Origin: Minisyncoccota bacterium
Lineage (GTDB): Bacteria; Patescibacteriota; Minisyncoccia; UBA6257; 2-01-FULL-56-20
Reading direction: 5' to 3'
Assembly: GCA_031291905.1 (NCBI GenBank)
Contig: JARLIC010000029.1
Coordinates: forward strand, 1 to 62,851
Length of the DNA stretch: 62,851 nucleotides
A model generated the notes under the pieces. The model saw nothing but the letters and a program-made list of their open reading frames with translations. It was not told the DNA's origin and did no database searches. Made by a program: the position numbers and the translations under genes. This document shows positions 1,222-48,714 of this stretch, piece after piece; within the stretch, counting starts at the first letter, position 1; each line of letters opens with the position of its first letter.

Positions 1222-2664
1222 ATGACCAAACCGCTGCCGTCCGAAAAAAAAGATATGACGAACAATTTGATGGAAAAGATCGTGTCGCTTTCGAAGCGCC
1301 GCGGATTCGTGTTCCCAGGTTCGGAGATCTACGGCGGCCTGGCGAACTCGTACGAGTACGGCCCGGTCGGCGTCGAGCTCAAGCGCAACATCCAGGATGA
1401 ATGGTGGCGCACATTCGTGCGCGAGCGGAGCGATATGGTGGGCCTGGATTCCTCTATAATATTGCACCCGAAGACATGGGAGGCGTCGGGACACGTGGCC
1501 GGGCTTGTGGACGCGATGGTGGAGTGCAAGAAGTGCCATACGCGCACACGCGCCGACCATCTAATCGAGAACCACTTTGAGGCGAAGAACGAGAGCATGA
1601 GCGTCGAAGGGAAACCCGAAACGGAGCTCGATGCGATCATCAACGAGAACAAGATCAAGTGTCCGGTATGCGGCGCGTTCGATTGGACCGCAGTGCGCAA
1701 GTTCAACCTGCTCTTCGAGACGCATGTCGGCATCGTGCCGGAGGCGCAGTCGAAGGTGTATCTCCGCGGCGAGACGGCTCAGGGCATATTCGTGAGTTTC
1801 AAGAACATCATCGATTCCACCCGTGTCCGCCTGCCGTTCGGCGTCGGCCAGCTCGGCAAGAGCTTCCGCAACGAGATCACAAAAGGCAACTTCATATTCC
1901 GCACGCTCGAATTCGAGCAGGCGGAGATCGAATATTTCTTCGATCCGGAGACGAGCGATTGGAAGGAATTGTATGACGGATGGAAGGAAGCAATGGAAAA
2001 GTTCGTGACGGAAAATCTTGGCGTCGAAAAGGATCACTTGCGCTGGCGCGAGCACGGCGACAAGGAGCGCAGCTTCTACAGCAAAAAAACGGAGGATCTT
2101 GAATACAACTTTCCGTTCGGTTTCAAGGAGCTCTGGGGATTGGCATATCGCACCGATTACGACTTGAACCAGCATATGAAGTTTTCGGGCGTCGACCTTT
2201 CCTATACCGATCCGGCGACCGGCAAGAAGTTCGTGCCGCACGTGATCGAGCCGGCGGTCGGCGTGAATCGTCTGATGGCGATGGTGATGCTCGACGCATA
2301 CACCGAGGACGGCGACCGCGTGTACCTCAAGCTCAAACCCCGTCTCGCGCCGTACAAGGCCGCGGTGTTCCCGTTGCTCGCGAACAAGCCGCAGCTCGTG
2401 GAGATCGCGCGGAAGATATACGACGACCTCCTCAAGGATTTCACCGTGGCTTGGGATGACCGCGGCAACATCGGCAAGCGGTACTATGCGCAGGATGAGA
2501 TCGGCACCCCGTTTTGCATCACCGTCGATTTCGATACTATTGAAGGGGGCGAGGACGGCACGCACAAGGGAACGGTGACCGTGCGCGACCGCGATACGGG
2601 CACGCAGGAGCGGGTGGCAATCGAAAAGCTTCAGGAATTCCTTCATGGCAAAATTTATCGTTAA
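1222..2664 (+). CDS. glyQS: glycine--tRNA ligase (class II, single-chain GlyQS type)
   Basis: N-terminus MEKIVSLSKRRGFVFPGSEIYGGLANSYEYGP and class II motifs along its full length. The start could instead be the internal ATG at 1255 or 1270. Confidence 0.93.
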   Translation: MTKPLPSEKKDMTNNLMEKIVSLSKRRGFVFPGSEIYGGLANSYEYGPVGVELKRNIQDEWWRTFVRERSDMVGLDSSIILHPKTWEASGHVAGLVDAMVECKKCHTRTRADHLIENHFEAKNESMSVEGKPETELDAIINENKIKCPVCGAFDWTAVRKFNLLFETHVGIVPEAQSKVYLRGETAQGIFVSFKNIIDSTRVRLPFGVGQLGKSFRNEITKGNFIFRTLEFEQAEIEYFFDPETSDWKELYDGWKEAMEKFVTENLGVEKDHLRWREHGDKERSFYSKKTEDLEYNFPFGFKELWGLAYRTDYDLNQHMKFSGVDLSYTDPATGKKFVPHVIEPAVGVNRLMAMVMLDAYTEDGDRVYLKLKPRLAPYKAAVFPLLANKPQLVEIARKIYDDLLKDFTVAWDDRGNIGKRYYAQDEIGTPFCITVDFDTIEGGEDGTHKGTVTVRDRDTGTQERVAIEKLQEFLHGKIYR

Positions 2665-3943
2665 GGGCGGCAAGCCGCTGTTCGGCGAGGTCGCGATCGC
2701 GGGCGCGAAGAACGCCGCGTCGAAGATGTTCGTGGCGTCGCTTCTGACCGACGAGCAGTGCATCTTCAAGAGTGTGCCGGCGATCGGCGAACTCGAGATC
2801 GTCGTGGAATTGCTGAGGACCATAGGCAGCCAGGTCGATATCGCGGGACCGACGGTGAGCGCGACCGCGAAGGAGATCGTGAACAATCGCGTGACGCAGC
2901 TTTCGCGCAAGAACCGCATTCCGATCCTCGCCCTCGGCCCCTTGCTCGCGCGCACGGGGGAGGCGGAAGTGCCGGTGCTCGGCGGCGACAAGATCGGTCC
3001 GCGCCCGGTGGATATCCACCTCGACGGACTCGCGAAGCTCGGCGCCCGCATTGAAGTGACCGAAAAAAGTTTTCATGCCTGGGCACCCGAGGGAGGTCTT
3101 CGAGGTGCGGAGATAGAGCTGCGCTTTCCGAGCGTCGGCGCCACGGAGAACATCATTCTTGCGGCCGTGCTCGCCCATGGAAGGACCGTCATCCGGAACG
3201 CCGCGCTCGAACCGGAGATCGTCGACCTCATCAAACTGCTCCAAAACATGGGCGCCATCATCGAACTCCATCCGCCGCGCACGATCATCATTGAAGGCGT
3301 GCCGAAACTTCACGGTACGACGCACCGCGTGATGCCCGATCGCAACGAGGCGGTATCGTTCGCCTGTCTTGCGATCGCGACGAACGGCCGCATCAAGCTC
3401 CGCGGCGCCGTCCAGGAGCATCTCATCACGTTCCTGAACACCGTGCGGCGGCTCGGCGGCGAGTACCAGGTGGACGAGGATGGCATCGCGTTCTGGCGCG
3501 CGCGCGAACTTTCGCCGGTCGAGATCGACACCGACGTACATCCGGGTTACATGACCGACTGGCAGCAGCCCCTCGGCGTATTGCTCACGCAGGCGAACGG
3601 CGTCTCGACGATCCACGAGACGATCTACGAAGACCGGTTCGCCTATACGAACGACCTGAACTCGATGGGAGCGGACATCACGGTATCGACGCAATGCCCA
3701 CCGGGCGCCCCGTGCCGCTTTGCGGGCCGGGGGTTGAACCATTTTGCGGTGATAAAAGGGGCAACGCCGCTTGCAAGCACAAATCTCGTTGTGCGCGATC
3801 TGCGTTCGGGCATCGTCGACATTCTTGCCGCACTCGTCGCGACCGGTGTTTCCGAGATCGACGGCGCGGACGAGATAGACAGGGGATACGAACATATCGA
3901 CGCAAGGCTGAGGCAGTTGGGTGCGGAGATAACCCGCGCCTGA
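2645..3943 (+). CDS. murA: UDP-N-acetylglucosamine 1-carboxyvinyltransferase
   Basis: MAKFIVKGGKPLFGEVAIAGAKNAASK start, 432 aa, EPSP-synthase/MurA fold signatures. It overlaps the glyQS end by 20 nt. Confidence 0.93.
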   Translation: MAKFIVKGGKPLFGEVAIAGAKNAASKMFVASLLTDEQCIFKSVPAIGELEIVVELLRTIGSQVDIAGPTVSATAKEIVNNRVTQLSRKNRIPILALGPLLARTGEAEVPVLGGDKIGPRPVDIHLDGLAKLGARIEVTEKSFHAWAPEGGLRGAEIELRFPSVGATENIILAAVLAHGRTVIRNAALEPEIVDLIKLLQNMGAIIELHPPRTIIIEGVPKLHGTTHRVMPDRNEAVSFACLAIATNGRIKLRGAVQEHLITFLNTVRRLGGEYQVDEDGIAFWRARELSPVEIDTDVHPGYMTDWQQPLGVLLTQANGVSTIHETIYEDRFAYTNDLNSMGADITVSTQCPPGAPCRFAGRGLNHFAVIKGATPLASTNLVVRDLRSGIVDILAALVATGVSEIDGADEIDRGYEHIDARLRQLGAEITRA

Positions 3944-4061
3944 TCCATATTTCGAACATTCTCTCGAGGACGGCGTCGAAACCTGCTGGTTTCGCGCCTT
4001 AGCACTCGGCGCCTACGCGCCTCCGTGATACCTCTCGAGAACGCTCGAAATATGGATCAGG
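3939..4061 (-). ncRNA. family A hairpin-apex element, copy 1 (conserved three-way-junction core on a long inverted repeat)
   Basis: Core 3970-4030 matches copies 2-4 when read on the minus strand. Arms 3939-3969 and 4031-4061 pair, with the outer 17 bp perfect. The left arm begins in the last murA codon plus the TGA stop. Confidence 0.55.
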
Positions 4062-4168
4062 CCACAATACTTTCCTTGCGCAACAATTGAGGACCTTCAG
4101 CGTAGCGACCCGGTCCGAAATGAGGAGATTTTTGCTTGCCTTCCCCGAAAGGATGTTCTGGAGGAGAA

Positions 4169-10346: not shown

Positions 10347-10475
10347 TTGAATACAACAAAAAGGCATCTTCCTTGAGGGGTATCACGGAGCCGCGAAGGC
10401 GGCGAGTGCTAAGGCGCGAAACCAGCAGGTTTCGACGCCGTCCCCGAAAGGATGGTGCCTTTTTGTTGTATTCAA
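10347..10475 (+). ncRNA. family A hairpin-apex element, copy 2
   Basis: 20 bp perfect arms (10347-10366 and 10456-10475), continued by an imperfect stem. Core 10377-10445. It exactly fills the gap between two convergent stop codons. Confidence 0.55.
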
Positions 10476-26276: not shown

Positions 26277-27002
26277 CTATTCCCGCACCGGCGCGCCGTG
26301 CTCGGTCCTCCATTCTTCTATCTTCTTATGATTCCCCGAAAGGAGCACTCCGGGAACCTTCCATTTCTTGCTTTTTGCGGGCGCGAAGATCTCCGGGCGC
26401 GTATAGGTCGGGAACGATCCGTTGATCTCCTCGAGCGATTCCTCCTTCCCCAAAAATCCCGGCAACTGCCGGCTCACCGCCTCCATGAGCACGAGCGCAG
26501 GCAGTTCGCCGCCGGAAAGCACGTAATCCCCTATCGACATTTCCTCGTCCGCGATGTACTCCGCCACGCGCTCATCCACGCCCTCGTAGCGTCCGCAGAT
26601 CAGGATCAGTTCGTCGTACTTGGCGAGACGCCGTGCCGCGGCCGCATCCAGTTTTTTTCCGCGCGGCGAAAAAAGGATCGTCCGCGTTCTTACCTTCTTC
26701 GTTCTGCGCTGCGCAATCCTTTTTATGGCCGCCGTGGTCGCCCAGATCGGCTGCACCTTCAGGACCATGCCCGGACCGCCGCCGAACGGCCGGTCGTCGA
26801 CCTTCGCGTGCCGGTCGTCCGTGTAATCACGGATGTTGTGGACCATCACCGAAAGAAGCCCGTCCTTTTGTGCGCGTTTGAAGAGCGATTCGCCCAGATA
26901 CGAATCGAAGATATCCGGAAATATCGTAAGGATATGAAAACGCACGGGGCGGCGTTTAGTGATGGCGCGACGCGCGGTCCTTTTCGTAGTCTTCATCATC
27001 AT
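26277..27002 (-). CDS. trmD: tRNA (guanine37-N1)-methyltransferase
   Basis: FHILTIFPDIF...DDRPFGGGPGMVLK...GRYEGVDERV motifs. Start is uncertain (ATGs at 26996-27002, GTG at 26945, or the ORF-track start at 27041). Confidence 0.88.
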   Translation of the reverse strand: MMMKTTKRTARRAITKRRPVRFHILTIFPDIFDSYLGESLFKRAQKDGLLSVMVHNIRDYTDDRHAKVDDRPFGGGPGMVLKVQPIWATTAAIKRIAQRRTKKVRTRTILFSPRGKKLDAAAARRLAKYDELILICGRYEGVDERVAEYIADEEMSIGDYVLSGGELPALVLMEAVSRQLPGFLGKEESLEEINGSFPTYTRPEIFAPAKSKKWKVPGVLLSGNHKKIEEWRTEHGAPVRE

Positions 27003-28950
27003 CGTTATTGTTTTGGGCCGGCGCAAGGGTCGAAGCCGCATCTCCCGCCGTAAGATCGGCGTTGAGCGATGCGCGGATCGCCGCGCGCAATTCGTCGATG
27101 CTTACCTCGGCATGCGGTCCGTGTTTCATTTTCTGTGTCTTCTCTTTCGGCTTGGTGAGCTCGGTCAAGGACATTCCCTGCTCCGAAGGCTGAGGCGCAG
27201 TGTCTTCCTGCGCAACAGGCCTCATCAACGGCCGGAACGTCGGCTGGCGCGCCGGTGCGGGTGCAACGGGTGCCGGCATCGGTTTCGGTGTGGGTGTGGG
27301 CGTGACGGTCGTCGCGTTCGCGTTTGCCGCGGGCGACGCGCCCACCGATTTCGGTGAGGTCCAATTCGAGCGGATCGGTTTCAATTCTCCCGAATCGATC
27401 TTCTTCATGCAGTCGCGGCAATACACCGGACGGCCCGGGGTCGGCTCGAAAGGTAGCGAGGTAAGATTGCCGCACGACGAGCATACTGCCTGATAGCGGA
27501 CGCCCCCCGTGGTCGCGATCGGCCCGCTCTTGGGCGTTTGTACCACACCGGCCCGTACGGGCGCGCCTGCCATGGATGCCGTTGCTCCTCCCGTTGCGGT
27601 CGAGAACGCCCCTCGTCCTGCAGCGTCCATATTGCCGCTCCAATGATTGATCTCCTCCTCGATCACTTCGCGCGGACGTGCGTAGTATTTCTGCGACATC
27701 CTTATGATATCTTCCTTCGCGGTTGTGGAGGTCTTCACCCTGAACGTCGGCAGCGTCGCCGCCGAGAACGGCCGCGCGGTCACGCCGTCGACCATCAGTT
27801 TGATATAGATATGGTAGTTCGGAAGGTTGACCATGTCCGCAATGACGAACTCCGGCGTGAACTCGTTCTCGAGGAACTCCGCATCGGCGGCGCCCACGCG
27901 GAATACGATCATCGTGCCGACGTTGCCGAAGATGGCGTCGCGCACTTTCGTCGAGGTGTCGGTGACGAGCTGGCCGATATACTGGTGCGCGAGCGTGAGG
28001 TTCAGCCGGTATTTGCGCGCCTCGGAAAGGATGCCCGCAAAGGAATCCGTGGCGAAGTTCTGGAACTCGTCGACATAAAGATAGAAATCGACGCGGTCCT
28101 CTTCCGGGATGCGCACGCGCTCCATGGAGGCGAGCTGGATCTTGGTGATGAGCATGGCGCCGAGGAGCGCCGAGTTGTCCTCGCCGATGCGCCCCTTCGA
28201 CACGTTCACAAGGAATATCTTCCCCTCGTTCATGATGTCGAACACGTCGATCGTGCTCTTCGACTGCCCGACGATGTTGCGCACGAGCGAACTCGAGAGG
28301 AACTGCCCCACTTTGTTCTGGATCGGGGCGATCGCCTCGTTGCGGAAACGTTCCTGCCAGCTCTCGAATTCGTTGAGCCAGAAGGCCTTCACGATCGGGT
28401 CCTTCACGTTAGCGATGATCTGCTGGCGGTACGTCTTGTCGCTCAAAAGGCGCGGGATGCCGAGAAGGGTCGAGCCCGGCGTATCGAGGAGCGCCAGGAT
28501 GCAGTTGTTCAAAATATATTCCATACGGGCCGACCACACGCCGGACCATATCTTCGTGAAGATCGCCATGAGGCCGGAAGCCACGAGATGCTTGTACTTC
28601 GGATCGGGCAGCTCGAGGATGTTGAAACCGATGTGGTAATCGGTATCGGCAGGATTGAAATAGATGACGTCCTTCATGCGCTCCTCGGGGATCCGGTCGA
28701 GGATGCTCTCCACAAGCTCGCCGTGCGGATCGACGACGCAGACACCCTCGCCGTTCGCGATATCCTGCACGATCATGTTGTTGAGCATGGAGCTCTTTCC
28801 GGTACCGGTCTTACCGACCACGTAGGTATGCTGGCGCCGGTCGCTTCTCTTGATACCGAAAAGGCGGCTCGAATTCCTGAAATTCGTCCGTGCGAAATAA
28901 TTGACGTTGTTCTCGAGTTCCGGTTGTGTGAGGGGCATGACTACCGTCAT
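26956..28950 (-). CDS. VirD4/TraD-like (FtsK/HerA superfamily) P-loop ATPase with C-terminal CxxC...CxxC zinc ribbon
   Basis: Walker A VVGKTGTGKSS, Walker B FYLYVDEFQNF, and a TraD/VirD4-like all-alpha insert. C-terminus reads CSSCGNLTSLPFEPTPGRPVYCRDC, followed by a Pro/Ala-rich tail. Confidence 0.8.
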   Translation of the reverse strand: MTVVMPLTQPELENNVNYFARTNFRNSSRLFGIKRSDRRQHTYVVGKTGTGKSSMLNNMIVQDIANGEGVCVVDPHGELVESILDRIPEERMKDVIYFNPADTDYHIGFNILELPDPKYKHLVASGLMAIFTKIWSGVWSARMEYILNNCILALLDTPGSTLLGIPRLLSDKTYRQQIIANVKDPIVKAFWLNEFESWQERFRNEAIAPIQNKVGQFLSSSLVRNIVGQSKSTIDVFDIMNEGKIFLVNVSKGRIGEDNSALLGAMLITKIQLASMERVRIPEEDRVDFYLYVDEFQNFATDSFAGILSEARKYRLNLTLAHQYIGQLVTDTSTKVRDAIFGNVGTMIVFRVGAADAEFLENEFTPEFVIADMVNLPNYHIYIKLMVDGVTARPFSAATLPTFRVKTSTTAKEDIIRMSQKYYARPREVIEEEINHWSGNMDAAGRGAFSTATGGATASMAGAPVRAGVVQTPKSGPIATTGGVRYQAVCSSCGNLTSLPFEPTPGRPVYCRDCMKKIDSGELKPIRSNWTSPKSVGASPAANANATTVTPTPTPKPMPAPVAPAPARQPTFRPLMRPVAQEDTAPQPSEQGMSLTELTKPKEKTQKMKHGPHAEVSIDELRAAIRASLNADLTAGDAASTLAPAQNNNDDDEDYEKDRASRHH

Positions 28951-28954
28951 TATA

Positions 28955-29170
28955 TCACGCCCTCCCGCTCTCGTCATTCTGCAGCATCTTATCGCGGATC
29001 TGCTTCTTGAGATCCTCTTCGCTTATGCCTTCAAGGCGCCGCAGGACCCTCTCGAGCCGTTGCACGCGATTGTGGAGATGCATGACCATGAAGATCAGGT
29101 ATACCAGGACCGCCGCGAGAATGCCGATCCCCCACCACGGTATGAACATATCATCATTATACCATATCAT
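28955..29170 (-). CDS. small single-TM protein
   Basis: WWGIGILAAVLVYLIFMVM helix followed by a charged tail; translationally packed in the cluster. Confidence 0.45.
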   Translation of the reverse strand: MIWYNDDMFIPWWGIGILAAVLVYLIFMVMHLHNRVQRLERVLRRLEGISEEDLKKQIRDKMLQNDESGRA

Positions 29171-31116: not shown

Positions 31117-31206
31117 CCAAATAGCTAAATACCAAATAAGGACCAATATCCAAGTTGAAAATTTCAAAATCGGAAGTCGGTCCTTATTTGGTATTTAGCT
31201 ATTTGG
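31117..31206. repeat. 28 bp perfect inverted repeat made of two copies of the ~32 nt motif, with a 34 nt loop
   Basis: CCAAATAGCTAAATACCAAATAAGGACC at 31117-31144 and its reverse complement at 31179-31206. Confidence 0.65.
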
Positions 31207-35089: not shown

Positions 35090-35145
35090 AGAAGCCTCCT
35101 TGCCCCATGAAATTGAATGGTGGCGGTTCAATATTACTAATTGCT

Positions 35146-35174
35146 GTTATACCAATACCGATGAAATCGGTCAA
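35146..35174 (-). promoter_or_regulatory. sigma70-like promoter (TTGACC-17-TATAAC) for the 34580-35089 gene
   Basis: -35 at 35169-35174 and -10 at 35146-35151 on the minus strand. Confidence 0.4.
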
Positions 35175-35181
35175 GAACGGG

Positions 35182-35298
35182 GTGGACCTGGGGGGAATCG
35201 CCCGCGAGTCCCCTGCTCGCCGTCGCTCGCAGGGGCTCTGGGCACCGGCTCACAAGATTTTCCTGCTGGAAAATCTTGCTCCGTCGTCCGATTCCCTC
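35182..35298 (-). ncRNA. family B element carrying a 19 nt direct copy of the tRNA-Ala 3' end
   Basis: 35182-35200 is identical to 35351-35369 (the tRNA-Ala 3' end). 35286-35298 is an inverted partial copy of the T arm. The interior has the GGAG-hairpin(CCAGCAGG loop)-TGAG module shared with family A. Confidence 0.45.
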
Positions 35299-35308
35299 AA
35301 TTCATAAG

Positions 35309-35348
35309 CTGATAAAAAAGACGCAGATATCTGCGTCTTTTTTATCAG
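35309..35348 (-). terminator. perfect 18 bp palindromic terminator after tRNA-Ala
   Basis: CTGATAAAAAAGACGCAG-ATAT-CTGCGTCTTTTTTATCAG. Confidence 0.7.
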
Positions 35349-35351
35349 TCG

Positions 35352-35422
35352 TGGACCTGGGGGGAATCGGACCCCCATCTATCGGATGCAAACCGATTGC
35401 TCTGCCACTAAGCTACAGGCCC
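35352..35422 (-). tRNA. tRNA-Ala (anticodon TGC)
   Basis: Hand-folded cloverleaf with acceptor GGGCCTG/CAGGTCC including the G3:U70 Ala identity pair. Anticodon loop is TTTGCAT. T loop is TCCGATT (C at position 55). No CCA is encoded. Confidence 0.88.
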
Positions 35423-35431
35423 GAAGCGAGG

Positions 35432-35464
35432 AGAAAATGAATAAATCCCATTTATTCATTTTCT
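35432..35464 (-). terminator. hairpin terminator after the M50 protease gene
   Basis: AGAAAATGAATAAAT-GGG-ATTTATTCATTTTCT on the minus strand. Confidence 0.5.
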
Positions 35465-35566
35465 ACGAGTAAGGGCATGTGCGCACCGCACCAGGCCCGT
35501 TACCGCACCAGCTTATCAGGAAAAATAATTTTCGTAAACACCCGGATGCTCCCCCGCTGCCGCGGT

Positions 35567-36295: not shown

Positions 36296-36370
36296 GCCCT
36301 CGTAGTGAAACGGATATCACGCGTGGCTTCGAACCACGAGCTTGGGGTTCAACTCCTCACGAGGGCACCA
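36296..36370 (+). tRNA. tRNA-Arg (anticodon TCG), CCA encoded
   Basis: Acceptor GCCCTCG/CGAGGGC, anticodon stem CGTGG/CCACG with loop CTTCGAA, T loop TTCAACT, 3' ACCA. Confidence 0.88.
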
Positions 36371-36371
36371 C

Positions 36372-36407
36372 AAACATAAAACACTCCATTCGGAGTGTTT
36401 TATGTTT
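36372..36407 (+). terminator. hairpin terminator after tRNA-Arg
   Basis: AAACATAAAACACTCC-ATTC-GGAGTGTTTTATGTTT. Confidence 0.65.
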
Positions 36408-36418
36408 ACTTGTTCATA

Positions 36419-36478
36419 GTGAGGAGTTGAACGGCGGAGTAATATTTTTCACCAGAGCCGCGGGCAACTCCTCACGAG
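36419..36478 (+). ncRNA. family B-like degenerate element carrying copies of the tRNA-Arg 3' end
   Basis: GTGAGGAGTTGAAC (an inverted copy) and CAACTCCTCACGAG (a direct copy of 36350-36363) flank GGC-GGA-G...GA-GCC. Confidence 0.35.
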
Positions 36479-38691: not shown

Positions 38692-38822
38692 GTTAATAAT
38701 ACAGCCCGCCTCCCCGTCTTGAGGGGGATCTCGGAGCCGCGCAGGCGGCGAGAGCTAAGGTGCGCGCCCAGTAGGGCGCGACACCGTCCCCGAAAGACGG
38801 GGAGGCGGGCTGTATTATTAAC
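38692..38822 (+). ncRNA. family A hairpin-apex element, copy 3
   Basis: 29 bp perfect arms (38692-38720 and 38794-38822) and core 38721-38793. An imperfect stem extension reaches roughly 38660-38855. Confidence 0.6.
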
Positions 38823-47124: not shown

Positions 47125-47240
47125 ACCCTTAAAGATACTAAAAAAGTGCATATGTTTCTCGCCAATTCGTCTTACTATCAGCTTGATTATCCCGGTATTA
47201 TCCGCGACAAACAGAAGGATGGTATAAAGAAGAAGATAGG

Positions 47241-47373
47241 TATCGAATAACAAAATGGCTCGGGTTTTTTGAAAGGTGTGTCGGAGGCACGAAGGTGCCG
47301 AGACCCAAGGCGCGAAACCAGCAGGTTTCGATGCCGTCCTTTCAAAAAACCCGAGCCATTTTGTTATTCGATA
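47241..47373 (+). ncRNA. family A hairpin-apex element, copy 4
   Basis: 36 bp perfect arms (47241-47276 and 47338-47373) and core 47277-47337. The right arm covers the secY stop and its last codons. Confidence 0.6.
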
Positions 47374-48635
47374 CCTTCGTACTCGCGAACCGTCAGCTGC
47401 GAATCAACCTGCCTCATCGTCTCAAGCGCGACGGCCACCACGATCAGAAGAGCGGTACCGCTGATGCTGACCACCGTAACGCCGGTAATCGCCTGCACGA
47501 GGGTCGGAAGGATCGCGATAAGCCCGAGAAAGATCGCGCCGAAGAACGTGATACGGTTCATGACCCCTTTGAAGAATATCTCGGTGCTCTCGCCCGGACG
47601 AATGCCCGGCACGAATCCCCCGCTCTGTTGAAGGTTCTTTGCGACCTCCTCCGGATTGAATGTGATCGCGGTATAGAAATAGGTGAAGGCAAACACGAGC
47701 AGAAAGTAGAAGATGCCGTAGTAGAGCTGGTTCGCGACGAATCCCGTAGCGAAGTTATTGATAATCGTGCCCCATTTGACCGAGAAGAGCACGACGATCT
47801 GCGCGATGAACTGCGGAACAAGCATGACCGAGATCGCGAAGATGAGTGGAATCATACCCGCCTGGTTCACTTTGAGCGGAAGATAGCTCTGTGAGCCGCC
47901 GTATATCTTGTTGCCGCGCACGCGTCGCGCATACGCCACCGGGATCTTGCGTTCGCCCTCGTTCAGATAAACGATGCCCGCAATGAGCAGGACGGCCACG
48001 ACGATGAATCCGGCGTATGCGGTGAGCAGTTGTGGCGTGTAGGATGCGACCGCGATACCGAACGTCGAAGGTAACTTGCTGATGATGCCCGCCAGAATGA
48101 TGAGCGAAATACCGTTGCCTACCTTCTCCTCGCTGATAAGCTCACCGAGCCACAGCGCAAGCATGGAGCCGCATGTGATCACAATGACGTTGCGGATGAG
48201 GCTGAACGCATCGGGCTGGGCGATCACGCCCTGCGATATGAGCAGCTTCAGAAAACCGTACGACTCGACGAACGCGAACGGCACCGTGAGCAGGCGCGAA
48301 TACTGGTTGAACTTTGCCTGACCGCGCGCACCTTCCTCGTAGTACATCTCTTTCATCTTCGGGAATATGATCGTCATGAGCTGCATGACGATGGTGGCAG
48401 TGATATACGGACCGACGCCGAGCATCACGACCGAAAGCGTGGAAAGGCCTCCTCCCGAGAAGAAGTTGAAGAACCCGAACAGTTGGTTGGAATTGAAGTA
48501 GTTCTGGAGCCGCACCGCATCGACGCCCGGGATCGGGATCGCCGCAAGCACGCGATAGGCCACCAAAAGCCCGAGGACAATAAGAATCTTATTGCGAAGC
48601 TCCTTTACTTTGAATATTTGCAAAAACCTTTCCAT
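47364..48635 (-). CDS. secY: preprotein translocase subunit SecY
   Basis: 423 aa, 10 TM helices, conserved GVGPYITATIVMQL and plug or hinge regions. Confidence 0.97.
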   Translation of the reverse strand: MERFLQIFKVKELRNKILIVLGLLVAYRVLAAIPIPGVDAVRLQNYFNSNQLFGFFNFFSGGGLSTLSVVMLGVGPYITATIVMQLMTIIFPKMKEMYYEEGARGQAKFNQYSRLLTVPFAFVESYGFLKLLISQGVIAQPDAFSLIRNVIVITCGSMLALWLGELISEEKVGNGISLIILAGIISKLPSTFGIAVASYTPQLLTAYAGFIVVAVLLIAGIVYLNEGERKIPVAYARRVRGNKIYGGSQSYLPLKVNQAGMIPLIFAISVMLVPQFIAQIVVLFSVKWGTIINNFATGFVANQLYYGIFYFLLVFAFTYFYTAITFNPEEVAKNLQQSGGFVPGIRPGESTEIFFKGVMNRITFFGAIFLGLIAILPTLVQAITGVTVVSISGTALLIVVAVALETMRQVDSQLTVREYEGIE

Positions 48636-48653: not shown

Positions 48654-48714
48654 GTTTTATAGTATCACTTTTGGGGCGATAAATCTTCTCGACCCAAAAG
48701 TGATACTATAAAAC
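48654..48714 (-). terminator. 22 bp perfect palindrome overlapping the rplO stop codon, in the rplO-secY spacer
   Basis: Arms at 48654-48675 and 48693-48714 with a 17 nt loop. The right arm contains the last rplO codons and TAG. Confidence 0.5.

Follow-up and report, generated by a model that had tools for sequence, protein, structure and literature searches.

The tRNA-Ala gene of a 62,851-nucleotide stretch of DNA (the whole of which is referred to here as the window) is followed by a member of an apparently undescribed, multi-copy family of folded elements of about 150 nt, which, in tiny CPR bacteria, follow tRNA and tmRNA genes. Each element is clamped between one antisense and one sense copy of the 3' part of its own tRNA, an arrangement that suggests either a new tRNA-targeted insertion module or a tRNA-linked RNA. 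Our preferred reading, to which we assign a probability of roughly 0.45, is a site-specific insertion module that is non-autonomous and that, as a folded single strand, would mimic the tRNA target.

A search for the core next to other tRNA genes, which a sequence-only reading of the locus had proposed, recovered 10 full copies and one deletion derivative from CPR (Paceibacteria-like) genomes and metagenomes. All 11 lie just 3' of a tRNA-Ala, -Arg, -Glu, -Gly or tmRNA gene and on the same strand, and the same architecture was found in independent assemblies (JGI, NCBI MAGs, and Logan). The genes flanking the other copies are housekeeping genes. At one locus (L061), serial copies of the tRNA 3' end, differing in length, follow tRNA-Arg(CCT). 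In the source metagenomes, the depth over the core was about 10 times that of unique flank; around 18 contigs per run lay on the core, and their loose ends bore several differing tRNA-type tails. Rfam (15) gave no match at the gathering threshold, and the window scanned at E<=5 yielded nothing relevant; the element scanned at E<=10 returned only noise of 9–12 bits. Two core patterns and the 19-mer, run against 2.9 million viral contigs, recovered only chance coding matches and tmRNA or tRNA genes, among which the covariance model identified no family member. Full-text searches of the literature found no description of the element.

The tRNA-Ala and tRNA-Arg loci of the window

On the minus strand, ARAGORN, Rfam and a repeat search reproduced, at the same coordinates, the order of tRNA-Ala, terminator, element and repeat that had been read from the letters (Table 1). 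The tRNA-Ala(TGC) shows the G3:U70 pair and does not encode CCA; its T-loop (UCCGAUU, with C55) is unusual, and C55-type tRNA-Ala is also present in three relatives (L066, L081, and L084). The 19-nt copy of its 3' end is exact and occurs only twice in the window, with two matches in 0 of 100 shuffled sequences. The larger tandem duplication against which the sequence-only reading had cautioned is absent, the flanks of the two 19-mers being divergent. The hairpin behind the gene (P0) is indeed a perfect palindrome of 20 + 20 nt; its GACGCAG/CTGCGTC stem is followed by TTTTTT, and by this sequence it looks like a bidirectional intrinsic terminator. The arm, previously described as an inverted partial copy of the T arm, is complementary to tRNA nt 53–63 at 11 of 11 positions. 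Both the GGA/GA internal loop and the CC-AGCA-GG hairpin loop were recovered as claimed, in common with family A, which has four copies in the window. The hairpin stem CAAGATTTTCC/GGAAAATCTTG is likewise present, but it is part of a variable covarying helix (P2b), and its sequence is not conserved. The second hairpin corresponds to P3, and additionally bears a conserved tandem-GA motif and a GACG loop. The predicted fold of the element has a free energy of -62.6 kcal/mol (z = -4.6).

Past the element, the promoter-like sequence was not flagged by a consensus scan; its second hexamer ends in C. The motif TTGACCG(A/T)TTT also occurs about 10–30 nt downstream of the tRNA in L008 and L066, and this promoter region is the native flank of tRNA-Ala in relatives that lack the element. 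The mRNA contigs assembled from metatranscriptomes extend to position 35117. The spacer agrees with the reverse complement of tRNA nt 63–76 at 5 of 14 positions in the window (by eye), which is chance level, and residual palindromy in the spacer was dropped.

Table 1. Features of the window, with family A for comparison.
Feature	Positions	Strand	Basis or remark
tRNA-Ala(TGC)	35351/2-35422	-	ARAGORN and Rfam, 67 bits
Direct-repeat copy 1, tRNA nt 56-74, CGATTCCCCCCAGGTCCAC	35351..35369	-	exact repeat search
P0 hairpin	35309..35348	-	A-tract, GC stem, T-tract; starts 2 nt past tRNA nt 74
Unpaired spacer, hairpin to arm	35299..35308	-	read from sequence
5' arm GAGGGAATCGGAC	35286..35298	-	reverse complement of tRNA-Ala nt 53-65, 11 contiguous matches and one more
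Three-way-junction core, conserved	35201..35285	-	RNAalifold, pair counts
3' tail, direct-repeat copy 2, sense copy of tRNA-Ala nt 56-74	35182..35200	-	
Promoter-like TTGACC-17 nt-TATAAC of downstream 169-aa gene	35146..35174	-	read from sequence
tRNA-Arg(TCG), T-loop TTCAACT	36296..36370	+	ARAGORN, Rfam
P0 terminator hairpin of tRNA-Arg unit	36372..36407	+	flagged by consensus scan
Deletion derivative of the element	36420..36478	+	covariance-model match; alignment to full L066 orthologue
Family A	3938-4062, 10347-10475, 38692-38822, 47238-47376		

A second, decayed copy follows tRNA-Arg(TCG). It reads arm TGAGGAGTTGAAC, GGCGGA, 16 nt, GAGCC, GCGGG and tail CAACTCCTCACGAG; the arm is complementary to tRNA-Arg nt 53–65 at 13 of 13 positions, and the tail equals nt 56–69. 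A 53-nt deletion removed the 3' strands of P2b and P2a together with P3. The copy at this gene occurs in L066, L084 and L085, is missing from L081 and has undergone an internal deletion in the window; it was inherited across a clade and then decayed inside the window. Between the window and L066 orthologues, the arm with GGCGGA (18 of 18 positions) and CCGCGGG with the tail (19 of 19) are identical, and the hairpin and spacer in between are only about 45% identical. Purifying selection in place, as here, is seen more typically with RNAs useful to the host than with inert insertions. In L066, the tRNA changed at nt 67–68 and the tail kept the old sequence, leaving two mismatches; since the tail was not updated with its tRNA, the identity there is historical and not maintained.

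The proposal of a miniature integrated element fits in so far as L066, L081 and L084 carry the same tRNA-Ala without the unit of about 169 bp. In these three genomes, the tRNA-Ala 3' end is identical, the M50 protease is 82–86% identical and the element is missing; L066 also keeps the same downstream TTGACCGATTT promoter as the window. The tRNA-Ala site is therefore empty in close relatives, and a distant relative (L060, 57%) has the element at the same tRNA. Assembled contigs of four source metagenomes contained neither a joint skipping the 169 bp nor a circle junction. No Pfam match to an integrase, reverse transcriptase or transposase domain was found among about 50 ORFs of the window or the ORFs flanking the copies, and Nop, IS110, TnpB and Cas domains were likewise without a match among the scanned window and flanking ORFs. 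The repeats enclose only some 150 bp of conserved non-coding structure.

Common architecture and match to the local tRNA

All copies follow one plan: the terminator hairpin with its spacer comes first, then a 13-nt arm that is antisense to nt 53–65 of the cognate tRNA, then the core, GCGGG, and a sense tail that runs from nt 56 to nt 73 or 74. The unit adds about 150 bp and a 19-bp duplication. The hairpin is found behind the tRNA in every copy, and constitutes the only conserved feature of the left end (A-tract/T-tract hairpin); in 7 of 11 copies, the stretch of hairpin and spacer between nt 74 and the arm measures 50–54 nt, and about 9–12 nt of spacer are unpaired in most copies (folds, by eye). 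The tail always starts at nt 56, right after the invariant GCGGG, and matches the tRNA without a mismatch through nt 73–75 (18–20 nt) in six copies and through nt 71 in one. The direct repeat, exact over 19 nt in the window, comprises 16–20 nt in other copies, and the distance between the repeat starts is 166–170 bp in six of nine measured copies. Three copies carry a second hairpin past the tail.

RNAalifold and pair counts revealed a three-way junction. In the consensus, P1 takes its 5' strand from the inner arm, complementary to tRNA nt 57–62 (in some copies as far as nt 65), and its 3' strand from tail nt 57–62, while C56 closes P3 and nt 66–74 are single-stranded. P2a leads through a 3x2 GGA/GA internal loop into P2b, a variable 12-bp hairpin with an AGCA loop. 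P3 rises from a GCCC/GGGC base through a variable 7-bp stem and a tandem G.A motif to its CG-GACG-CG tip. Across the alignment, 96.8% of cells were paired, a level reached in 0 of 500 shuffles and far from the 37–47% of slid controls, and 22 of 38 pairs showed changes on both sides (9 sequences). A further copy from the source metagenomes has a P3 with only 3 mismatches in 59 positions, but another tail and another P2b. The non-Watson-Crick cells comprised 8 G.U against 2 A.C, and the sense strand was 6.4 kcal/mol more stable than the antisense strand (9 of 9 copies). A conserved G.U pair lies beside the GGA/GA loop, the tandem G.A is an RNA-type motif, and in 6 of 10 copies the 3' strand of the loop is CUGA or GUGA (by eye). 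A K-turn combines tandem sheared G.A pairs, a 3-nt bulge and a canonical stem; here, a G.A/A.G arrangement is possible and P2a C-G pairs flank it, but the bulge is a single G.

The paired segments follow the local gene. In the window, the arm reads GGAC opposite the rare C55 of tRNA-Ala, whereas other copies read GAAC; in the tRNA-Arg copies, the arm GAGTTGAAC and the tail CAACTCC both match the TTCAACT loop. As judged by these matches, arm and tail derive from the local tRNA in every copy, so that, of the options raised by the sequence-only reading, stems built from local target sequence fit best. A CGATTC core site borne by the element itself was discarded, as the tRNA-Arg copies bear CAACTC; the change of arm and tail with the T-loop at tRNA-Arg marks CGATTC as target-derived. 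One core is found with cognate tails at Ala, Arg, Glu, Gly and tmRNA genes, and the alignment shows, by eye, no clustering of the variable helices according to tRNA identity, which is awkward for a fixed attP. With tails cognate for at least five RNAs on ungrouped cores, a fixed attP fails and a target-copying step is required. A nine-bp target duplication, considered from the L009 copy, was dropped, because the tRNA-Glu gene of L009 has a 38-nt internal deletion; intact tRNA-Glu versions (L056 and L058) have the usual 19-nt repeat.

Candidate explanations

Under the preferred reading, the module would enter at the segment between the T-loop and the tRNA gene's 3' end, leaving the gene intact and supplied with a terminator, and would come to lie between 19-bp direct repeats. 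Its active form would be a folded single strand (ssDNA or RNA) of tRNA sense, in which the arm/tail helix offers a double-stranded replica of the target segment on the conserved junction, and the insertion enzyme would act in trans. In support of this notion, the P1 arm pairs with the sense tRNA copy and covaries with the tRNA, including at tRNA-Arg. The 19-bp repeat could be a target duplication, and we infer that insertion either creates or uses it, that arm and tail are fitted to every newly occupied tRNA and, by analogy with folded recombination sites, that the folded strand is probably the substrate. Several observations weigh against this reading: excised and empty-site forms were missing from the assembled contigs of the source metagenomes, the two ends bear no terminal inverted repeats (by eye), tails cognate for at least five RNAs call for a target-copying step, the tRNA-Arg orthologues are conserved in place, and the L066 tail did not follow its tRNA. 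A bolder form of this proposal, which we consider speculative and rather unlikely in full, is that an enzyme-free structured nucleic acid inserts behind tRNA/tmRNA genes, acquiring antisense (nt 53–65) and sense (nt 56–74) copies of the target, so that recognition would proceed by base-pairing or duplex mimicry, with self-reprogramming and a trans-acting protein, and family A may share the machinery.

Mobile DNA classically lands in tRNA and tmRNA genes, and recognition has, to our knowledge, always been credited to the protein integrases of large elements. The element described here is a protein-less structured unit of about 150 nt with the same site preference and a built-in target replica, serving several tRNAs on one scaffold. 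If mobile, it would provide reprogrammable recognition of a DNA site, of mechanistic and possibly technical interest, and would account for part of the unexplained intergenic structure in minimal CPR genomes; were target-templated insertion true, it would constitute a new class of nucleic-acid-guided insertion in CPR bacteria. If it acts as RNA, it would represent a new class of tRNA-linked RNA that, in our models, swaps strands with its own tRNA. Under either reading, it is a well-supported motif, with 22 covarying pairs in 9 sequences, that was not found in Rfam.

The main rival, which we regard as possible but on balance improbable, is a co-transcribed trailer RNA produced by read-through from the tRNA promoter and acting as a switch or partner of its own tRNA. 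In the modeled states, the arm would pair either with the tail (P1, three-way junction) or with tRNA nt 53–65; in the second state, the tail would replace the tRNA 3' strand, giving a 'giant tRNA' with a T-loop insert of about 170 nt. Possible roles include the quality control of tRNA, 3'-end processing, the repair or substitution of tRNA cleaved in its T-loop, and display of the junction on a tRNA scaffold. In agreement with this, the minimum-free-energy fold of tRNA plus element is the 'giant tRNA' (-129 kcal/mol, z = -9.3), in which the tail closes the acceptor and T stems and the arm pairs with tRNA nt 53–63, and the arm:tRNA duplex is 3.3–6.5 kcal/mol more stable than arm:tail in all nine measured copies. 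The tRNA orientation kept in 11 of 11 copies, the G.U pairs favoring the sense strand, the RNA-type motifs (tandem G.A, conserved G.U by the GGA/GA loop), the second hairpin past the tail in three copies, and the tRNA-Arg orthologues conserved in place while hairpin and spacer diverged all point the same way. However, a canonical terminator separates tRNA and element, with no promoter seen in the 9–12-nt spacer, and the element is patchy and dispensable, being absent at most orthologous tRNA loci and deleted at the window tRNA-Arg. The L066 tail mismatches its own tRNA at two positions, and function alone leaves the cognate arm and tail at new tRNAs unexplained. Four metatranscriptomes of the same study recovered neighboring mRNA and neither the element nor tRNA-Ala itself; missing tRNA-Ala as well, they are uninformative on element expression. 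Peat metatranscriptomes searched with the L058 copy were likewise empty.

A guide RNA for an RNA-guided enzyme encoded elsewhere appears a good deal less probable. The core would then be a protein-binding scaffold, with the arm pairing to one DNA strand and the tail to the other, either of the tRNA 3' end or of the attP of integrating elements, for homing, target immunity or defence. Such a role would suit a scaffold with a variable, target-matching 3' tail of about 19 nt and an arm of opposite sense, and, as in box C/D and K-turn modules, the GGA/GA motif contains tandem G.A, its 3' strand being CUGA or GUGA in 6 of 10 copies; TIGR-Tas and IS110 bridge RNA provide known examples of dual-strand tandem-spacer guides with box C/D-like motifs. 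Yet the arm shares a 10-nt overlap with the tail, over which the two pair, whereas TIGR and bridge guides address adjacent sites, and the bulge has 1 nt against 3 nt in a K-turn. The scanned window and flanking ORFs gave no match to Nop, IS110, TnpB or Cas, and the guide would match an essential gene of its own cell.

We consider it very unlikely that the repeat is an attL/attR scar of a larger integrase island or prophage after internal deletion, the 'remnant after island loss' entertained in the sequence-only reading. The classical signature of a tyrosine-integrase island is reportedly a direct repeat that extends, within a tRNA or tmRNA gene, from its T-loop to its 3' end, and the serial 3'-end copies at L061 would fit. 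The 166–170-bp period in 6 of 9 copies and the single covarying core common to all, with no cargo or integrase fragment in any copy, speak against this reading; independent deletions would not converge on one architecture, and no related sequence was found among the 2.9 million viral contigs. A chance repeat, local tandem duplication or assembly artefact, for which only the general frequency of short repeats could be adduced, is practically negligible given the 0 of 100 shuffles with two matches, the unrelated flanks of the 19-mers, and the recurrence across JGI, NCBI MAG and Logan assemblies.

Other candidates were rejected. Hammerhead, twister and group I fit neither in size nor in junction sequences, and Rfam scans revealed no self-cleaving ribozyme or intron family; for a box C/D guide, the motif order is wrong. 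IS608, with its 19-nt linker, and IS91, which targets GTTC, exemplify elements considered for their subterminal hairpins, but the duplication is neither produced by IS200/IS605 or IS91 nor accounted for by them, and the hairpins lack conservation.

Comparison with known systems

Our comparison with islands and prophages of tyrosine integrases that target tRNA or tmRNA genes revealed the same choice of the 3' part of the gene, the same repeat from T-loop to 3' end and an intact gene, with sites occupied in some relatives and empty in others. Unlike these islands, the element is about 150 bp long, lacks integrase and cargo, and possesses an antisense arm and a covarying three-way junction; its tails are cognate for many tRNAs on one core, and the repeat usually ends at nt 73/74.

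A shared layout is seen with the CTX-phage attP(+) and integron attC sites, which are folded single-strand sites whose recombinase is supplied in trans. With T denoting the target segment, the order here is T, body, inverted T, a spacer of about 85–90 nt, and T; the stem reproduces the target duplex, and structure rather than sequence is conserved. CTX attP and attC present a full two-arm site, whereas the stem of the element covers only nt 56–65, and its target is a tRNA gene, not dif or attI. Its 'spacer' is, in addition, a highly conserved branched structure.

Like MITEs, Correia, ERIC, REP/BIME and IS1397, of which the last inserts into hairpin loops, the element is small, multi-copy, intergenic, patchy and non-coding, and often lies by terminators. 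It differs in having no terminal inverted repeats, with the A-tract hairpin at the left and ...GCGGG at the right (by eye); the flanking inverted sequences are local and specific to each copy, and the element is strictly tied to tRNA 3' ends with a 19-bp duplication.

TIGR systems occur in CPR, and dual-strand tandem-spacer guides are found in TIGR tigRNA and IS110 bridge RNA (PMC12045711). The element resembles both in having segments that match opposite strands of one site with a box C/D-like G.A nearby; its segments, however, overlap by 10 nt and pair together, its units are single and tRNA-linked rather than arrays or IS parts, and no IS110 or Nop-domain (Tas) match adjoined it among the scanned ORFs.

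Family A differs by arms that are unique inverted repeats of 32–39 nt, exactly 61 nt apart, by its lack of a tRNA link and by its mixed orientation to genes. Third direct copies of its arms were absent from the window, and the covariance model of the tRNA-linked family did not detect it. The two families nevertheless share the C-GGA-G / Y-GA-G internal loop, the C-AGCA-G hairpin loop, the topology of the three-way junction and a closing helix made from copy-specific local sequence. The tRNA-linked family offers a concrete handle on its sister family A.

The unit behind tRNA-Ala and its fold

The DNA in the window belongs to the core chromosome of a CPR bacterium with high GC (0.58) from a bioreactor metagenome; its nearest genomes carry the labels Parcubacteria, Paceibacteria or Minisyncoccia. 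At the site, the gene order is SecF, SecD, a 169-aa protein, the element, tRNA-Ala, an M50 protease, tRNA-Arg, tRNA-Trp, two tRNA-Thr and DnaE, with a ribosomal-protein operon, SecY, Adk, GreA, MurC, MurG, FtsW, GluRS and TrmD farther away. Scanning the ~50 window ORFs gave no match to integrase, transposase, reverse-transcriptase, TnpB, Cas or Nop domains, in agreement with the earlier remark that an integrase is absent, and no IS110, TnpB, Cas or Nop gene was found beside the element among the flanking and window ORFs. At ~32-38 kb, cumulative GC skew reaches its maximum and genes turn from the minus strand on the left to the plus strand on the right, a switch at which the skew sign suggests a terminus and gene orientation an origin; GC content falls to 0.49 in the tRNA cluster. 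A TrwB/TraG-like coupling protein lies amid housekeeping genes, an arrangement kept in relatives (L062, L063), which carry a ComEC-type competence gene just past TrmD; this may have a bearing on how these bacteria take up DNA.

Features located in the window
Feature	Position	Strand	Remark
tRNA-Ala(TGC)	35351/2-35422	-	ARAGORN and Rfam
19-mer CGATTCCCCCCAGGTCCAC, tRNA copy	35351-35369		tRNA nt 56-74
19-mer CGATTCCCCCCAGGTCCAC, second copy	35182-35200		exact
Perfect palindrome	35309-35348		20+20 nt, between the two 19-mers
Spacer			10 nt, between palindrome and arm
Arm GAGGGAATCGGAC	35286-35298		complement of tRNA nt 53-63
tRNA-Ala upstream stretch	35423-35566	-	~70 nt extra between promoter and tRNA
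Perfect hairpin	35432-35464		15+15 nt, within the extra ~70 nt
Second unit, after tRNA-Arg(TCG)	36296-36478	+	perfect arm and tail, internal deletion
Family A copy	3938-4062	-	
Family A copy	10347-10475	+	
Family A copy	38692-38822	+	
Family A copy	47238-47376	+	
Near-perfect intergenic palindrome	31117-31206		45-nt arms, 84% complementarity
Near-perfect intergenic palindrome	48654-48714		29-nt arms, 93% complementarity
Type IV coupling protein, zinc-finger domain	26956-28977	-	TrwB/TraG-like

ARAGORN, Rfam, a repeat search and folding placed tRNA-Ala, its palindromic terminator, the folded element and the exact 19-nt repeat of the tRNA 3' end where the sequence-only reading had put them, and the arm is indeed an inverted partial tRNA copy. 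None of 100 dinucleotide shuffles held two matches to the 19-mer, and the segment between the repeats folds at -62.6 kcal/mol (z = -4.6). Since the flanks of the two copies bear no relation to each other, a larger tandem duplication of the tRNA region, which that reading had named as the outcome that would count against it, is excluded. Upstream, the tRNA-Ala promoter (TTGATAAGCTG...) is conserved in the window and in loci L066, L081 and L084, and relative to these three the window has the extra stretch listed in the table.

Across copies, the unit follows tRNA nt 73/74 in the order P0 (the terminator hairpin), spacer, arm, core, an invariant GCGGG and tail. P0 consists of an A-tract, a GC-rich stem and a T-tract, starts 0-4 nt past nt 74 and runs into an unpaired spacer of ~9-12 nt in most copies; in 7 of 11 copies, 50-54 nt separate nt 74 from the arm despite differing stem sequences. 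The arm reads as the reverse complement of nt 53 to 62-65 in the cognate tRNA, and the tail is a sense tRNA copy starting at C56, straight after GCGGG. Six tails match their tRNA without mismatch to nt 73-75 (18-20 nt) and one to nt 71, and the L066 tail spans nt 56-75 with two mismatches. The repeats lie 166-170 bp apart, start to start, in six of nine copies.

The RNAalifold consensus is a three-way junction in which arm and tail pair as P1; P2a (CGGC/GCCG) leads into a 3x2 loop with GGA opposite GA; P2b is a variable 12-bp hairpin with loop AGCA; and a two-base GU joint connects to P3, built from a GCCC/GGGC base, 7 bp of variable stem, tandem G.A and the tip CG-GACG-CG. Among nine copies, 96.8% of pair cells hold standard pairs, compared with 37-47% when partners were slid by 1-3 columns, and both sides have changed at 22 of 38 pairs, values reached in 0 of 500 shuffles. 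The tRNA-sense strand folds more stably than its complement by 6.4 kcal/mol and does better in all nine copies. Together with an excess of G.U over A.C cells (8 vs 2), this makes the sense strand the one that folds, be it as RNA or single-stranded DNA.

Copies at other tRNA genes and their turnover

In the source-metagenome contigs covering the region, the core recurs beside other neighbours and the flanks do not. A BLAST search with the element against the comparison loci (CPR genomes and metagenomes) gave an 83%-identical copy in L009, a pattern built from shared blocks matched eight metagenome loci, and the covariance model R1, run across ~1.1 Mb of CPR and viral sequence, recovered the pattern-found copies and further ones reached via neighbouring proteins. 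Altogether, 10 distinct full copies and one derivative were found, all directly downstream of a tRNA and on its strand. The hosts are tRNA-Ala (window, L060), tRNA-Arg(TCG) (L066, L084 (= L085) and the window derivative), tRNA-Glu (L058 (= L056, L009), L055), tRNA-Gly(CCC) (L059, L061a), a tRNA-Gly 3' fragment (L061b) and a tmRNA gene (L054), bearing out the suggestion that the core might recur beside other tRNA genes. By eye, copies from different species do not cluster by tRNA identity in their variable helices. The element matched no family in Rfam 15, and no member was found in 2.9 million viral contigs.

Population and expression evidence comes from assembled contigs throughout; in these, the conserved core of the source metagenomes reaches ~10x the depth of unique flank, with ~18 contigs per run on the core and loose ends carrying several tRNA-type tails. 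One such copy has P3 in common with the element (3/59 mismatches) and differs in P2b and tail. The tmRNA gene (L054 2263-2748, tag ANNFVAAPRALAYA) carries a full copy whose tail ends ...CUCCACCA with a complete CCA, which the gene itself lacks; among the other tails, only that of L060 has a complete CCA. In L009, a GTDB representative MAG (SPRUCE 130), 38 nt are missing within tRNA-Glu(TTC), from anticodon stem to T-arm (2210-2290 (-), compared with L058 2401-2473), and ARAGORN calls no tRNA there; the 38 nt are present in two same-species metagenome contigs, and the gap is an error in the assembly or else a genuine deletion.

The arm and tail derive from the tRNA and not from the element, in line with the option, among those raised earlier, of stems built from local target sequence. 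tRNA-Arg(TCG), with T-loop TTCAACT, has elements with arm (C/T)GAGGAGTTGAAC and tail CAACTCC..., and GAGAATC arms go with U62 tRNAs. U or pseudouridine is nearly universal at tRNA position 55, and more distant relatives' tRNA-Ala has the normal T-loop UUCGAUU; C55 (T-loop UCCGAUU) occurs in tRNA-Ala(TGC) of the window (35352-35422 (-)), L066 (2830-2901), L081 (10748-10819) and L084 (1617-1688), and is therefore a lineage trait. GGAC is found in the window arm only, GAAC in the others; because this variable base lies in the junction, unpaired inside the element, the arm base opposite C55 tracks the tRNA itself.

Two serial units after tRNA-Arg(CCT) (L061 11045-11480) follow the same arm-and-tail logic with interiors unrelated to the family core, so the logic may belong to the insertion process and not to this core. 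In each, antisense CAGGAATCGAA precedes a sense repeat of the tRNA 3' end, 23 nt long in one and 33 nt in the other, where it runs 15 nt past the tRNA into the flank; one of the two units contains a full-length antisense copy interrupted by a 25-nt hairpin, as in L061b.

Among relatives, the tRNA-Ala site is empty in the three closest (M50 82-86%; SecD 92% in L066), where the tRNA 3' end is identical, and filled in the distant L060 (M50 57%), which has the same synteny. In L066, 32 nt separate tRNA-Ala from the TTGACCGATTT promoter that the window has after the tail. At tRNA-Arg, L066, L084 and L085 have the full-length copy, and L081 and L006-L012 have none. In the window copy, a 53-nt deletion between two GAG repeats has removed P3 and half of P2. 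Compared with L066, its hairpin and spacer are ~45% identical and about half of the positions differ in the surviving P2b 5' strand, and the arm with GGCGGA (18/18) and CCGCGGG with the tail (19/19) are unchanged, a pattern that, in sequence, is that of a structure under purifying selection. The L066 tail still reads G67 G68 where its tRNA now has A67 A68, indicating that a tail is not always updated with the tRNA.

Modules shared with family A

The GGA/GA and AGCA loops that had been said to link the element to family A are present in all four window copies: each core has a C-GGA-G / Y-GA-G loop, a C-AGCA-G hairpin loop and the three-way topology. The proposed link is supported by these common modules and by the design common to both families, in which a helix of local sequence closes a conserved core. 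Family A cores are flanked by copy-specific inverted repeats of 32-39 nt lying exactly 61 nt apart, with no third copy of these arms in the window and no Rfam match. The secY-adk gap holds one copy, which runs antisense to the operon. In the relatives L006 and L008 the tRNA-Thr/dnaE spacer is far shorter and has no such element or long hairpin. The two near-perfect palindromes in the table contain no inserted core and could be 'empty' counterparts of family A sites; long hairpins resembling bidirectional terminators seem to be a habit of this genome.

Possible readings: insertion module or tRNA-associated RNA

We consider a non-autonomous, site-specific insertion module the likeliest reading, at slightly less than even odds (about 0.45). 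It is favoured by the folded-strand layout, by sites that close relatives have empty, by the presence of multiple copies, one of them decayed, and by the restriction to tRNA/tmRNA 3' ends. The active form would be the folded sense strand, with the enzyme presumably encoded elsewhere. Integration of a folded single strand whose hairpin stem mimics the target is familiar from CTX phage at dif and integron attC, and the layout (target T, body, inverted T, a structured ~85-nt segment, T, native flank) is the one such integrants leave. As to how arm and tail come to match each tRNA, a fixed attP would leave chimeric, dead tRNAs at new targets. A staggered cut with a 19-bp duplication would account for the tail and for its constant limits (nt 56 to 74), leaving the arm unexplained. 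Copying that reads both target strands with a 3-nt offset (53 vs 56) would fit the sequences; no enzymology is known for it.

The main rival is an RNA transcribed along with its own tRNA, which it would sense, process, repair or exploit. The minimum-energy fold of tRNA plus element is a cloverleaf in which the tail closes the acceptor and T stems (-129 kcal/mol, z = -9.3), the arm is paired with nt 53-63 of the tRNA itself, and the former T-loop carries the hairpin, P2 and P3 as branches; in every copy measured, arm:tRNA pairing is stronger than arm:tail by 3.3-6.5 kcal/mol. Strict co-orientation with the tRNA, G.U pairs on the sense strand and in-place conservation of the tRNA-Arg copies point the same way. 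However, the element stands behind a canonical terminator and is dispensable, and function alone yields no new cognate copies. Metatranscriptomes contained neighbouring mRNA up to 35117 and recovered neither the element nor tRNA-Ala, and are hence uninformative. The insertion-module and RNA readings are not exclusive: a mobile unit with a useful RNA, or one harmless since it bears a terminator, would combine both feature sets.

Other identities fared worse. The remnant of a lost island entertained in the sequence-only reading is contradicted by the uniform repeat period in 6/9 measured copies, one conserved core in all and cargo in none; and a usual MITE is rejected, as terminal inverted repeats are absent.

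A full-text literature search found no description of the element. Closest in concept among the search results are the tandem-spacer guide RNAs of TIGR-Tas and IS110, whose two spacers pair to opposite strands of the DNA next to box C/D-like motifs; TIGR systems are present in CPR (PMC12045711). Unlike the spacers of those guides, the element's two target-derived segments overlap and base-pair to one another.
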